Positions 31,582 through 54,432 of a DNA stretch of 64,000 nucleotides are shown in pieces; the stretch's first letter is position 1; each line of letters begins with the position of its first letter. The stretch lies in NCBI GenBank assembly GCA_963839955.1, contig CAWIXB010000001.1, forward strand, positions 469,629-533,628, in the 5' to 3' direction. Made by a program: the position numbers and the translations under genes. The stretch is from an uncultured Actinomycetota bacterium (GTDB taxonomy: Bacteria > Actinomycetota > Actinomycetes > JACCUZ01). Below the pieces are notes generated by a model. That model had not been told where the DNA came from and ran no database searches. It worked only from the letters and a program-made list of their open reading frames with translations.

Positions 31582-33863
<2,282 letters not shown>

Positions 33864-34958
33864 TCACTGCCAGCCTGCGACCTCCGACGGCTGGCGAGGA
33901 CCATGGCCGATGTAGCGCGCCGCCGGCCGGATGAGCCGCCCGGTGCGCTTCTGCTCGAGGATGTGCGCCGCCCAGCCCGCCGTGCGCGCGCAGGTGAACA
34001 TGGGGGTGAACATGTGCGGCGGCACCTCGGCGAAGTCGAGCACCACAGCCGCCCAGAACTCGACGTTCGTCGCGAGCACTCGGTCTGGCCGGCGGGCGCC
34101 GAGCTCGTCGAGCGCGGCCTTCTCCAGCGCGGCGGCCGCTTCCCACCGCGGCGCGCCCAGCTCCTCCGCCGTACGTCGGAGCACCCGCGCGCGCGGGTCC
34201 TCCGCCCGGTAGACGCGGTGGCCGAAGCCCATCAGCCGCTCGCCGCGGTCGAGCACGCCCTTGACGTACGCCGACGCGTCACCGGTCTCCTCGATCGCGT
34301 CGAGCATGTGCAGCACACGCGACGGAGCGCCGCCGTGCAGCGGACCTGACATCGCGCCCACCGCTCCCGACAGGCACGCCGCGACGTCGGCGCCGGTGGA
34401 GGCGATGACCCTGGCCGTGAACGTCGACGCATTCATGCCGTGCTCCGCTGCCGACGTCCAGTAGGCGTCGACGGCCTGCACGTGCCGGGGGTCGGGCTCG
34501 CCGCGCCACCGGATCATGAAGCGCTCGACGACGGTGCGCGCCTTGTCGATCTCGGCCTGCGGCACCATCGGCAGTCCGATGCCGCGGGCCGACTGGGCGA
34601 CGAACGACAAGGCCATGACCGACGCCCGGGCCAGGTTGTCGCGCGCCTCCTCCTCGTCGATGTCGAGCAGCTGCCGGAAGCCCCACGCCGGCGCGAGCAT
34701 CGCGAGGGCGCTCTGCACGTCGACGCGCACGTCGCCGGAGTGCACGGGCAACGGGAAAGGCTCGGCCGGCGGCAGCCCGGGATTGAATCGGTCGTCGACG
34801 AGCAGTCCCCACACGTTGCCGAACGACACCTGCCCCACCAGGTCCTCGATGTCGACGCCGCGATAGCGAAGCGCGCCACCCTCGCGGTCGGGCTCCGCGA
34901 TCTCGCTCTCGAAGGCAACGACTCCCTCGAGGCCGGGCTTGAAGTCGGGGTCACTCAC
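33864..34958 (-). CDS. citA: Citrate synthase 2
   Basis: PGLEGV, AEHGMNASTF, GPLHGGA, LMGFGHRVY, DPRA, TNVEFW. Confidence 0.92.
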   Translation of the reverse strand: MSDPDFKPGLEGVVAFESEIAEPDREGGALRYRGVDIEDLVGQVSFGNVWGLLVDDRFNPGLPPAEPFPLPVHSGDVRVDVQSALAMLAPAWGFRQLLDIDEEEARDNLARASVMALSFVAQSARGIGLPMVPQAEIDKARTVVERFMIRWRGEPDPRHVQAVDAYWTSAAEHGMNASTFTARVIASTGADVAACLSGAVGAMSGPLHGGAPSRVLHMLDAIEETGDASAYVKGVLDRGERLMGFGHRVYRAEDPRARVLRRTAEELGAPRWEAAAALEKAALDELGARRPDRVLATNVEFWAAVVLDFAEVPPHMFTPMFTCARTAGWAAHILEQKRTGRLIRPAARYIGHGPRQPSEVAGWQ

Positions 34959-35065
34959 GCTGGCTCCCTCGTCGGGCGGCACGGCGTCATGCCGTCGTGC
35001 GCATTCTCACCCTTGCCGGCGCACCCTGTCGCCCCGGGCTCCTGTCGCGCGTGCCAGAGTGAGAC

Positions 35066-35728
35066 GTGCCCGAGTCCGAGCCGCAGCCCTCTCATGACGT
35101 GGCCGCGATGCGCCGTGCCTACAGCGCGCGCGGTCTCGACGTACGCGACTTGGCCGGCGACCCGCTCACGCAGTTCGGCCGATGGTTCTCCGACGTGGTC
35201 ACGGCCGACCTGGCCGAGCCGAACGCCATGGTCCTGGCCACCGCCTCCGCCGACGGCCCGAGCGCGCGGATCGTGCTGCTCAAGGGCTACGACGCGAACG
35301 GCTTCGTCTTCTACACCAACCTCGGATCGGCCAAGGCGCGCGACCTCGCTGCCGACTCCCGGGCCGCCCTGCTGTTCCCCTGGCACGCGCTGGCCCGCCA
35401 GGTGCGGGTGAGCGGACCCGTCGAGGCCGTCGACCGCGACGCGGTGACGCGCTACTTCGGGTCGCGGCCGCGCGAGTCGCAGTTCGGGGCCTGGGCGAGT
35501 CCGCAGTCGGAGATGGTCGCCGACCGGGAGGCTCTCGACGCCCGCTACCAGGCGGTCGAGGCTCGCTTCGCGACCGCCGACGTGGTGCCGGCGCCGGACT
35601 TCTGGGGCGGCTACCGGGTCCGTCCCGAGACCGTGGAGTTCTGGCAGGGCCGGGAGAGGCGGATGCACGACCGGCTGCGCTACCGCCGCGCGGGCGAGGA
35701 CTGGGTCGTGGAGCGGCTGGCTCCCTGA
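35066..35728 (+). CDS. pdxH: Pyridoxamine 5'-phosphate oxidase
   Basis: EPNAMVLAT, RIVLLKG, FYTN, RQVRV, EFWQGR-RRMHDRLRY, RLAP. Confidence 0.95.
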   Translation: MPESEPQPSHDVAAMRRAYSARGLDVRDLAGDPLTQFGRWFSDVVTADLAEPNAMVLATASADGPSARIVLLKGYDANGFVFYTNLGSAKARDLAADSRAALLFPWHALARQVRVSGPVEAVDRDAVTRYFGSRPRESQFGAWASPQSEMVADREALDARYQAVEARFATADVVPAPDFWGGYRVRPETVEFWQGRERRMHDRLRYRRAGEDWVVERLAP

Positions 35729-35978
35729 TCGCGGAGCGATCCAAAGGGGGACTGATCGCGGAGCGATCCAAAGGGGGACTGATCGCGGAGCGATCCAAAG
35801 GGGGACTGATCGCGGAGCGATCCAAAGGGGGACTGATCGCGGAGCGATCCAAAGGGGGACTGATCGCGGAGCGATCCAAAGGGGGACTGATCGCGGAGCG
35901 ATCCAAAGGGGGACTGATCGCGGAGCGATCCAAAGGGGGACTGATCGCGGAGCGATCCAAAGGGGGGCTGATCCAAAG
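35725..35978. repeat. Tandem array: 9 x 27-bp CTGATCGCGGAGCGATCCAAAGGGGGA plus a degenerate partial unit
   Basis: Units start at 35725, 35752 ... 35941. The ninth ends in G instead of A; partial CTGATCCAAAGG at 35968. Each unit holds the palindrome GATCGC-GGA-GCGATC. No spacers. Confidence 0.95.
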
Positions 35979-36004
35979 GAGGGGCTGCGCCCGGCCTCGG
36001 GCAG

Positions 36005-36186
36005 CAGACGACCCGCGGGCATCGAACGTGCGAGGGGACGTTTCCTCGCGGCCCGCGGGTCGGGTGACTGCCTGGGACTTGCCGGCCGCCTTGGGCCGGT
36101 TCGCTCCGGGGTCCGGCGGCTAGCTGGCAGCCACCTCACGCGTCCTAGAAGTACTCAAATTCTCGGACCACCTCCCTTCCGTGTAC
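36005..36186 (-). ncRNA. Putative structured small RNA / leader RNA carrying a short ORF
   Basis: Upstream TTGTGC-N18-TACGGT promoter. Stem GGTGGCTGCC/GGCAGTCACC and 12-bp terminal stem CGACCCGCGGGC/GCCCGCGGGTCG enclosing an inner hairpin. Confidence 0.6.
36120..36158 (-). CDS. Putative 12-aa peptide MSTSRTREVAAS
   Basis: Very strong SD AAGGGAGGTG about 10 nt before TTG 36158; TAG at 36122-36120. Confidence 0.45.
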   Translation of the reverse strand: MSTSRTREVAAS

Positions 36187-36191
36187 CGCAA

Positions 36192-36221
36192 ACCGTACGT
36201 CGCGGATCACGGCTGGCACAA
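36192..36221 (-). promoter_or_regulatory. Sigma-A-type promoter for the putative small RNA
   Basis: -35 TTGTGC (36221-36216), 18-nt spacer, -10 TACGGT (36197-36192). Confidence 0.5.
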
Positions 36222-36241
36222 CGTCTATTCGACACCGAGGG

Positions 36242-36964
36242 CTAGACGGAGACCGAGATCCAGGTTGCCTCGGCGCGGCCGACCACGCGGCCGTCACCGT
36301 CGTACACCGTGCTCGTGGTGAACGTCTTGCGGCCCTGCTCGCCGAGCCAGCGCCCCAGTACGACGCAGCGGTCACCGACCATGAGACCGGCGGCCACCTC
36401 GGCCGTCATCCGACCGAGCACCATCGGCCGGCCGGTGAGGTCGGCCGACCAGCCGCCGGGGCAGTCGAGGGCCGCCCACACCATCTCGGGAGGCACGAAC
36501 CCGTGGGTGCCGGCCACCGAGTCGTCGGGCACCCACGTGGTGGCCACGGTGTTCATCCGGTCGGCGAGCCGCCCCGGCCGCAACCCCAGTCCGTCGGGGG
36601 CGGGACGTTCCGGGCCGCACACGAAACACCGTGGGAACGGGTGGTCGACGAGTCCGGGGTAGACGTGCATCCTCTCCGCGGCGGTGTCGAAGGGCACCGG
36701 CTCGATGGGCTCGCAGGCCAGGGTGCCGGTGTGCGCCTCGGCGATCACCGCGCCGCCGAAGGTGAGCGAGACCGTGTCGTCTGTCGGCCGTACGACGAGC
36801 AGTCGGGAGTCCAGCGGCGGCGGCTGCCGGAGGGTCACCTCGACCGGCATGGGCCTTCCGTCGAGGTTTGCGGCGAGACGCCCTGCCACGTAGCCGCCGT
36901 TGCCACTGCCCGACGGCCCGCAGAAGCGGCCGGCGATGGTGAGGGAGGGCTGTGGTCCGGACAT
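36242..36964 (-). CDS. Double hotdog-fold / thioesterase-like protein
   Basis: RFCGPSGSGNGGY, VTLRQPPPLD, HPFPRCFVCG, WAALDCPGGW, MVLGRM. Confidence 0.7.
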   Translation of the reverse strand: MSGPQPSLTIAGRFCGPSGSGNGGYVAGRLAANLDGRPMPVEVTLRQPPPLDSRLLVVRPTDDTVSLTFGGAVIAEAHTGTLACEPIEPVPFDTAAERMHVYPGLVDHPFPRCFVCGPERPAPDGLGLRPGRLADRMNTVATTWVPDDSVAGTHGFVPPEMVWAALDCPGGWSADLTGRPMVLGRMTAEVAAGLMVGDRCVVLGRWLGEQGRKTFTTSTVYDGDGRVVGRAEATWISVSV

Positions 36965-38646: not shown

Positions 38647-38805
38647 GCCGCCTAGTCCTGCCCCGCGCGTGCAGCCGGTCGAGATCTCCGCACGGCAGGA
38701 GCGGGGGACCCACTTATGTGGGCCCCTTGGGGTCCTAGGGGTGAAGCCGCCCACCAGCGGCCGGGCATCTCCCGCCCGAACCCGACAGCTCACCCCGTAG
38801 GCGTG
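38647..38805 (+). promoter_or_regulatory. Cyclic di-AMP (ydaO/yuaA) riboswitch
   Basis: Conserved blocks GCAGGAGCGGGGGACCCA, GGGGTGAAGCC, GGCCGGGCA, CCCGAACCCGACAGCTCACC..GTAGGCG in the 5' UTR of a cell-wall hydrolase, the usual context in actinobacteria. Confidence 0.9.
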
Positions 38806-38818
38806 GGAGAGGACTCCT

Positions 38819-54356: not shown

Positions 54357-54432
54357 TGGTGCCCCCGGCAGGAATCGAACCTGCGACACCCGCTTTAGGA
54401 GAGCGGTGCTCTATCCCCTGAGCTACGAGGGC
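54357..54432 (-). tRNA. tRNA-Arg(CCT)
   Basis: GCCCTCGTAGCTCAGGGGATAGAGCACCGCTCT-CCT-AAAGCGGGTGTCGCAGGTTCGATTCCTGCCGGGGGCACCA: cloverleaf, GTTCGA T-loop, encoded CCA. Confidence 0.97.

Follow-up and report, generated by a model that had tools for sequence, protein, structure and literature searches.

The DNA analysed here, a stretch of 64,000 nucleotides (nt) from an uncultured Actinomycetota bacterium called the window throughout, carries on its minus strand a segment that an original prediction, made from the sequence alone, had flagged as a structured small RNA with a short reading frame. This segment is Ms_IGR-5, an actinobacterial small RNA that is already catalogued and that the source genome carries once; the object itself is therefore known. 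Its conserved anatomy apparently has not been described before. It comprises a stretch complementary to the free 3' tail of 16S ribosomal RNA (rRNA) over its full length, a mini reading frame that is kept for being read, and a pseudoknot that joins this frame to the 3' domain of the RNA. These features point to an action on or by the ribosome, and we consider it probable (roughly 60%) that Ms_IGR-5 is a stand-alone RNA that engages the ribosome and whose frame is decoded, the identity of the encoded peptide being irrelevant.

The identity of the element was established by a cmscan search of the whole window against Rfam. This matched positions 36003-36184 of the minus strand to RF02471 (Ms_IGR-5) with 104.9 bits, where the gathering score is 45 (E value 1.4e-22 in the window search and 9e-25 locally), covering positions 1-184 of the 184 in the model with no truncation. 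The original prediction had been unable to assign the RNA to a named family, and had itself named a confident match to one as the result that would remove the novelty; since such a match was obtained, the object is not new. Furthermore, the window's copy has no feature that distinguishes it from the rest of the family, with which it shares the conserved boxes, the central hairpin, the terminal stem and the stand-alone arrangement. As an ordinary family member it adds no new kind of element. The source genome holds one copy. The family model matched 108 of 151 genomes in a sample of the class (E <= 0.001; 107 above the cut-off) and 44 of 151 genomes in an even sampling of the phylum (same threshold; 20 above the cut-off), nearly always with a single copy per genome where the RNA was present. 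None of 14 control genomes, C. glutamicum (Corynebacterium) included, matched the model. Ms_IGR-5 is thus among the most widespread actinobacterial small RNAs sampled, and it is the family that merits attention. All counts below refer to 68 homologous loci (30 from the phylum sample, 13 fetched separately and 25 from the class sample) unless a smaller set is named. Three of them (L019, L029 and L045) come from genomes marked unpublished; they are inside the counts, and no claim stands on them alone.

The promoter-like hexamers, the Shine-Dalgarno sequence, the 12-codon frame, the long-range stem and the terminal stem that the original prediction had listed are all present exactly where it had placed them (Table 1). 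Indirect evidence for decoding comes from the frame. The frame that holds the invariant GAG-GUG is open from just past the 16S-complementary box up to a stop whose place is shared by all loci, with an internal stop in 0 of 68 homologs, and the other two frames contain stops in 45 and 63 of them. An ATG, GTG or TTG past the box is present in 58 loci; the first of them, chosen blind to frame, lay in this frame in 56. Under a rule that gave preference to canonical starts no more than 8 nt from the box, the starts were TTG in 30 loci, ATG in 19, GTG in 5, CTG in 12, and ATA and ATT in one each. In 35 loci the frame is 12 codons long, in 26 it has 13 codons and in 7 it has 14. Between box and start, spacers of every length from -1 to 7 nt occur, and the distance from start to GAG is 21, 24 or 27 nt only. 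The stop is kept as well: 63 distinct frames end in TAG (46), TGA (10) or TAA (7) and never in TGG (Fisher test, 1.5e-7, uncorrected for relatedness), even though the middle base of this codon is mostly unpaired (pair 28-147 was scored as 'other' in 38 of 64 sequences).

The peptide behaved differently from the frame. Conservation at the amino-acid level, with synonymous changes outnumbering replacements as expected of a dual-function RNA or a small-protein gene, was not found among the 68 homologs; the frame also holds no run of regulatory or repeated codons and no conserved arrest peptide. Most homologs share a C-terminal half of the form x-T-R/C-E-V-A/T, and the N-terminal half is unconserved. 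Freely varying bases occur at codon positions 1, 2 and 3 alike (NGG, GNC, NGC and ACN) and change the residue (R/W/G at NGG; A/V/G/D/E, of which GNC gives A, V, G and D; R/S/C/G at NGC). The third base of the Thr codon ACN, which also varies, belongs to a pseudoknot pair that covaries. In one lineage, an extra base between GGAC and GAG turns R-T into G-P; the nucleotides are kept and the frame is restored elsewhere. On account of these free bases at all codon positions, the ACN third base and the G-P lineage, the comparison of homologs indicates that the RNA sequence and the reading of the frame are under selection and the peptide is not. Of the conservation that the original prediction had asked for in homologs, the Shine-Dalgarno sequence (pairing at all 16 positions in 63/68, a shared 16S tail assumed) and the frame (68/68) were retained, but the codons of the peptide were not conserved as amino acids.

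The box ahead of the frame is far longer than an ordinary Shine-Dalgarno sequence. The 16S rRNA of the source genome ends in GGAUCACCUCCUUUCU, and the box GGAAGGGAGGUGGUCC pairs with all 16 bases of this free 3' tail, through 13 Watson-Crick and 3 G-U pairs. The same 16/16 pairing was found in 63 of 68 homologs, on the assumption that their 16S tail is that of the source genome, in which alone the tail was checked. In the window, about 4 leader bases precede the box and a 6-nt spacer separates it from the TTG. In 21 of 68 loci, among them four of the window's own family, the central domain contains a significant look-alike of the 16S tail, complementary to the box of the same RNA. It is 11 nt long in L010, L014 and L038 and 10 nt long in the four relatives of the window's family and, where present, it could mask the box.

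The frame is embedded in a conserved fold. The fold energy of the 182-nt RNA is -91.4 kcal/mol and that of shuffled sequences -77.4 +/- 4.1 kcal/mol (z = -3.4; 1 of 200 shuffles as low), and the minimum-energy fold holds exactly the long-range helix and the terminal stem named in the original prediction. RNAalifold, given 34 class-level homologs, predicted both unprompted, with the long-range helix kept in 34/34. Pairs were counted in 64 of the 68 loci, those aligned at E <= 0.01 by a covariance model (R1) that begins a little ahead of GGAC and extends to the 3' end; L028, L030, L039 and L043 were missed by this model and are absent from the pair counts. A MAFFT alignment of all 68 placed the outgroups 1 nt out of register near a bulge and was excluded from these counts. 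Over all helices, 89.1% of alignment cells pair, compared with 73.9% after shuffling (reached in 0 of 500 trials) and 31-46% with the partners slid. The long-range helix pairs in 92.5% of cells with both-side changes in 5 of 10 pairs (for example UA 57 / CG 7, and CG 21 / UG 12 / GC 9 / AU 5 / UA 3), the base of the central hairpin in 82.2% (5 of 6 pairs), the terminal stem in 95.9% (12 of 12) and the inner hairpin in 72.5% (6 of 6). The central hairpin differs in length and sequence among lineages.

A pseudoknot, GGAC(N)/(N)GUCC, lies outside the alignment model and connects codons of the frame to AAACGUCC, the loop of the inner 3' hairpin. In the 64 homologs, 94.3% of its cells pair and 3 of its 5 pairs show both-side changes (GC 57 / AU 2 / CG 2; CG 60 / UA 2 / UG 1; CG 18 / GC 13 / UA 10 / UG 5 / AU 1). 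The same pairing appears in the class-level MAFFT alignment; GUCC in the loop shows little or no variation across the 34 class-level sequences, and in the outgroups it changes together with GGAC of the frame. Both-side changes are therefore present in all four nested helices and in the pseudoknot, and the original description of a structured small RNA with a 12-codon frame locked into its own fold is borne out by RNAalifold and by covariation in 64 homologs.

These pairings differ in part from the catalogued structure. The central hairpin base and the terminal stem of RF02471 are present and covary. The first hairpin of the model, in which the Rfam consensus pairs the 5' box with GCUGCC, competes with the better-supported long-range helix GGUGGCUGCC/GGCAGUCACC, which RNAalifold and the pair counts favour. 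Because covariation favours this helix and the pseudoknot, which is absent from the model, over the pairing of box and GCUGCC, the RF02471 consensus structure may need revision. Inspection by eye also showed a conserved unpaired stretch that follows the central hairpin and precedes the 3' strand of the long-range helix, at about 36080-36073 (columns 153-161 of alignment A4); it is GAAUCC-like in most homologs and AAGUCC in the window.

We next considered the ends of the RNA. A scan of 35600-36500 for promoter and terminator consensus sequences of the E. coli type found nothing and was judged uninformative for this organism; positional conservation of the hexamers was used in its place for this reason. 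Of the 68 homologs, 44 have a TANNNT 15-17 nt ahead of the box, which is seen in 4.7% of shuffles; 29 have in addition a TTG 16-19 nt 5' of the TANNNT, against 0.1% of shuffles. In the window, 7 nt separate the -10-like TACGGT from the A at 36184, and the 5' end of the RNA is probably at 36184-36186. The metatranscriptome contigs, all from relatives, cover only 36020-36184, and the uncovered parts are uninformative. One of these contigs stops at 36184 and continues in adapter-like letters, a weak hint of a 5' end. No T run follows the terminal stem in the sequence, and the stem is likely a terminator or a 3' protective stem that works without a U-tract. Ms_IGR-5 is intergenic in the window and has promoter-like hexamers of its own, with reads from relatives' contigs only.

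Ms_IGR-5 was first reported from Mycobacterium smegmatis (IGR-5 = ncMSMEG15794c), reportedly by Li et al. 2013, to whom citing papers attribute the original description. According to the accessible parts of the published reports, it was detected in S. lividans with RNA-seq support and in M. smegmatis as ncMSMEG15794c, and was mapped in S. avermitilis as a separate small-RNA transcription unit. In M. smegmatis it carries a nicotinamide adenine dinucleotide (NAD) cap, starts at +1A and was termed 'validated but yet uncharacterized'. In M. abscessus, a transcription start site was mapped 2 nt before the start of the Rfam match (PMC4974804). The literature accessible to search describes no function for Ms_IGR-5, and in the searchable literature we found no description of the frame, the 16-nt 16S complement or the pseudoknot.

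Ribosome profiling in M. abscessus connects the RNA to ribosomes. In supplementary file 2 of PMC4974804, the homolog ncMab10731 has 70.3 reads per kilobase per million (RPKM) in RNA-seq and 3736.6 RPKM in ribosome profiling. This is the highest profiling value among the table's 36 non-coding RNAs (ncRNAs), followed by transfer-messenger RNA (tmRNA) with 3581.0, and the ratio of profiling to RNA-seq (~53) is the highest as well, with F6 next at ~12.5 (PMC4974804). Riboswitches, RNase P, the signal recognition particle RNA and 6C all have ratios below 1 (PMC4974804). The sections of PMC4974804 that were consulted state that significant ribosomal reads fall on MS_IGR-5 homologs in both M. abscessus and M. 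smegmatis, and they pass over the top rank among the 36 ncRNAs without comment. The F6 homolog of M. abscessus, whose ratio is second to that of Ms_IGR-5, has 382 RPKM in profiling and 31 RPKM in RNA-seq (PMC4974804).

If the RNA indeed engages the ribosome, it could work as follows. A 30S subunit would dock on the 16-nt box, which leaves the start codon at a workable distance, and the ribosome would decode the mini-frame, melting first the pseudoknot, which begins 13-14 nt past the start, then the 10-bp long-range helix and finally the central hairpin's base, at which it would terminate. The ribosome-loaded RNA and the compact fold would then be alternative states, mutually exclusive because decoding requires that the pseudoknot and the long-range helix be melted. 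Through such closed/open switching the RNA may report translational capacity, or it may hold ribosomes. Candidate outputs are the exposure of the unpaired stretch and of the distal strand, an altered stability of the RNA, or mere occupation of the ribosome. The original prediction had listed a ribosome-sensing or ribosome-sequestering RNA among its options, and these options fit best with the frame statistics, the 16S pairing and the profiling table. Overall, what it had observed was confirmed and its interpretation was partly supported.

A more far-reaching version, to which we give only tentative credence and which we think rather unlikely, is that Ms_IGR-5 mimics an mRNA and serves to read or buffer the pool of free ribosomes, toggling between a closed and a ribosome-opened form, with a frame of no coding value. 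6S and Ms1 RNA act as mimics of an RNA polymerase substrate and hold the enzyme. The likeness is by analogy only and lies in a stand-alone, highly structured RNA of an abundant family that presents a perfect, here predicted, site to a core machine; the machine differs (the ribosome instead of RNA polymerase), and the conserved frame of Ms_IGR-5 implies decoding, which has no parallel there. If the mimic were real, it would be a phylum-wide translational counterpart of 6S or Ms1 RNA, and ribosome availability could be linked to growth arrest, hibernation or RNA decay. The hypothesis can be tested in model actinobacteria.

Several observations weigh against an RNA whose frame is decoded. Nested thermodynamic folding predicts a box that is not exposed: in ensemble folds, which ignore the pseudoknot, its mean unpaired probability is 0.38 and exceeds 0.5 in just 13 of 68 homologs. 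The 16S-tail look-alike that could mask the box in other loci is not significant in the window's central domain, where 24 of 100 shuffles were equal with rough domain limits. At the place expected for the start, 14 of 68 homologs have a non-canonical codon (CTG, ATA or ATT). The homologs are related to one another, so that the counts overstate the number of independent events, and the alignment of the nested helices was fitted to these same helices and favours them. In a search of sequencing runs, the fraction of sampled words found in any one run stayed at or below 0.05, and no run came from the source organism. Finally, the sections consulted of PMC4974804 group MS_IGR-5 with the classical non-coding RNAs and caution that such RNAs may co-sediment with ribosomes. 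In the same supplementary file, transfer RNAs (tRNAs) have ratios higher still (PMC4974804), and the profiling figure for this reason speaks for association with the ribosome, not for translation.

Docking without a need for decoding would account for part of the evidence. In such a decoy, which would be a counterpart in translation of 6S or Ms1 RNA, the folded RNA offers the docking site and the locked frame holds or slows 30S subunits or ribosomes, with occasional decoding merely releasing them. Pairing of 16/16 bases to the 16S tail goes far beyond an ordinary Shine-Dalgarno sequence and would suit this role. In the 12-codon forms, the start of the pseudoknot 13-14 nt past the start codon coincides with the edge of the footprint of an initiating ribosome, as its size is generally known. 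The 3' half of the frame is almost always paired (unpaired probability 0.18; above 0.5 in 1 of 68 homologs), and the profiling ratio of ~53 in M. abscessus, the highest of the 36 ncRNAs, would fit a long dwell (PMC4974804, supplementary file 2). However, titration of ribosomes needs a very high copy number, and RNA-seq gave just 70 RPKM in the same table (PMC4974804). The strict conservation of frame and stop also suggests that full decoding counts, beyond docking. We therefore regard a pure decoy as unlikely.

A second alternative is a plain base-pairing, non-coding sRNA (small RNA); the frame-like features would be by-products of constraints on the RNA, and the ribosomal reads would reflect co-sedimentation, for which the authors of the Ribo-seq study themselves urge caution with ncRNA footprints (PMC4974804, in the sections consulted). 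Rfam and the family's publications, as far as they were accessible, treat Ms_IGR-5 as non-coding, its in-frame conservation is at the level of nucleotides and not of amino acids, and the conserved unpaired stretch seen by eye could serve as a seed. Structure alone, however, leaves unexplained why the start codon moves with the spacer and yet stays in frame. Insertions between start and core occur only in threes, the stop never becomes TGG despite its mostly unpaired middle base, and a 16-nt 16S complement 1-7 nt ahead of a start is the anatomy of a translation start. This makes an RNA that acts by base pairing alone distinctly improbable.

A third alternative is a small-protein gene with the 12-residue peptide MSTSRTREVAAS as its functional product. 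Start, frame and stop are conserved behind a strong ribosome-binding site, and the C-terminal motif recurs in most homologs. The conserved residues, however, coincide with nucleotides that are held by RNA pairing, the free positions alter the amino acid, the lineage in which GGAC is shifted by 1 base against the frame keeps the nucleotides and loses R-T, and the N-terminal half is unconserved. SgrS/SgrT, RNAIII/hld and SR1/SR1P are dual-function sRNAs with a small open reading frame (ORF) whose peptide is conserved and active. Ms_IGR-5 shares with them the stand-alone sRNA and the frame but not the conserved peptide, and we give a functional peptide very little chance.

Comparison of the neighbourhoods showed that Ms_IGR-5 is a gene of its own with no tie to any neighbour; it has a putative housekeeping-type promoter and a terminal stem. 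A downstream neighbour with a Pfam annotation was present in 50 of 61 loci and was convergent in 45 and co-directional in 5 (L008, L011, L024, L028 and L035). These neighbours belong to many families (pdxH 9, LmeA 9, THAP4-like haem-binding 5, besides DNA ligase, NlpC/P60 and others). The upstream side is equally varied: 31 of 65 loci have a gene with a Pfam match there, and the commonest family, class-IV aminotransferase, accounts for 4. Since neighbours were chosen from stop-to-stop segments by a heuristic based on G+C content at third codon positions, these counts are approximate. The stand-alone unit proposed in the original prediction was upheld in this way and, because the flanking genes vary between lineages, Ms_IGR-5 is not a leader.

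The weakest alternative, also raised in the original prediction, is a cis-acting leader-peptide attenuator or read-through switch acting on the 27-bp array, antisense pdxH and citA-serC; a short frame that overlaps a stem and is followed by a terminator-like hairpin, and the convergent downstream pdxH in 9 loci of more than one family, speak for it, but the varied synteny largely refutes it (pdxH downstream in 9 of 50 loci only, for an RNA conserved phylum-wide), and we consider it most improbable. The nearest annotated gene downstream in the window, pdxH, lies on the opposite strand and is not co-directional. The frame has no regulatory codon run, and no pairing that competes with the terminal stem was found by RNAalifold, the pair counts or the single-sequence fold: the long-range helix runs up to the terminal stem and abuts it without overlap, which leaves no exclusive terminator and antiterminator pairings. 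In S. avermitilis, moreover, the accessible report describes a separate sRNA unit. With attenuators of the trpL/hisL type and other ribosome-sensing leaders, Ms_IGR-5 shares a short frame whose reading melts a stem, a terminator-like hairpin and the minor role of peptide identity, but it lacks their regulated downstream gene, codon run and terminator/antiterminator alternative. The resemblance in working is limited to a ribosome that remodels an RNA fold.

Table 1. Features of Ms_IGR-5 and its surroundings in the window.
Feature	Position	Strand	Basis or remark
-35-like hexamer TTGTGC	36216..36221	-	read in sequence; positional conservation
-10-like hexamer TACGGT (TANNNT type)	36192..36197	-	read in sequence; 18-nt spacer from TTGTGC
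Ms_IGR-5 small RNA, ~182 nt	36003..36184	-	Rfam RF02471 match, starting at A 36184
16-nt box GGAAGGGAGGUGGUCC, extended Shine-Dalgarno	36165..36180	-	complementarity to 16S rRNA 3' tail
12-codon frame, TTG (36158-36156) to TAG (36122-36120), peptide MSTSRTREVAAS	36120..36158	-	read in sequence; homolog statistics
Pseudoknot 5' strand GGACG, codons 5-6 of frame	36141..36145	-	pairs with 36040-36036; covariation
Pseudoknot 3' strand CGUCC, loop AAACGUCC of inner 3' hairpin	36036..36040	-	covariation
Long-range helix 5' strand GGUGGCUGCC, codons 8-11 of frame	36126..36135	-	RNAalifold; covariation
Long-range helix 3' strand GGCAGUCACC	36063..36072	-	RNAalifold; covariation
Central hairpin domain, stop codon in stem base	36081..36124	-	covariation; single-sequence fold
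12-bp terminal stem (36062-36051/36020-36009) enclosing inner hairpin (36049-36030)	36009..36062	-	covariation
240-residue ORF	36242-36964	-	ends 58 nt 5' of sRNA start; no Pfam family at E <= 0.001
27-bp repeat array, 9.2 units, 99% identity	35725-35973		between pdxH and sRNA
pdxH	35066-35728	+	convergent downstream of sRNA
Citrate synthase	33864-34982	-	downstream
Class-V aminotransferase	32727-33848	-	downstream

The surroundings of the RNA in the window, with the repeat array, pdxH in antisense, citrate synthase and the class-V aminotransferase, are as first described. The array begins at the stop codon of pdxH and ends about 30 nt from the 3' end of the sRNA. Its 27-bp unit gave 9 hits in the genome, all of them in the array and none elsewhere, and each unit reads AAAGGGGGA (Shine-Dalgarno-like) on the pdxH strand and CCCCCUUUGGAUC on the strand of the sRNA. 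Several relatives combine TREVAA-like frame ends with a convergent downstream pdxH. Elsewhere in the window, the Rfam models identified a full-length cyclic di-AMP riboswitch of the ydaO/yuaA type (RF00379) at 38676-38818 on the plus strand, with 63.5 bits against a cut-off of 38, and a tRNA gene (RF00005) at 54360-54432 on the minus strand with 66.4 bits.

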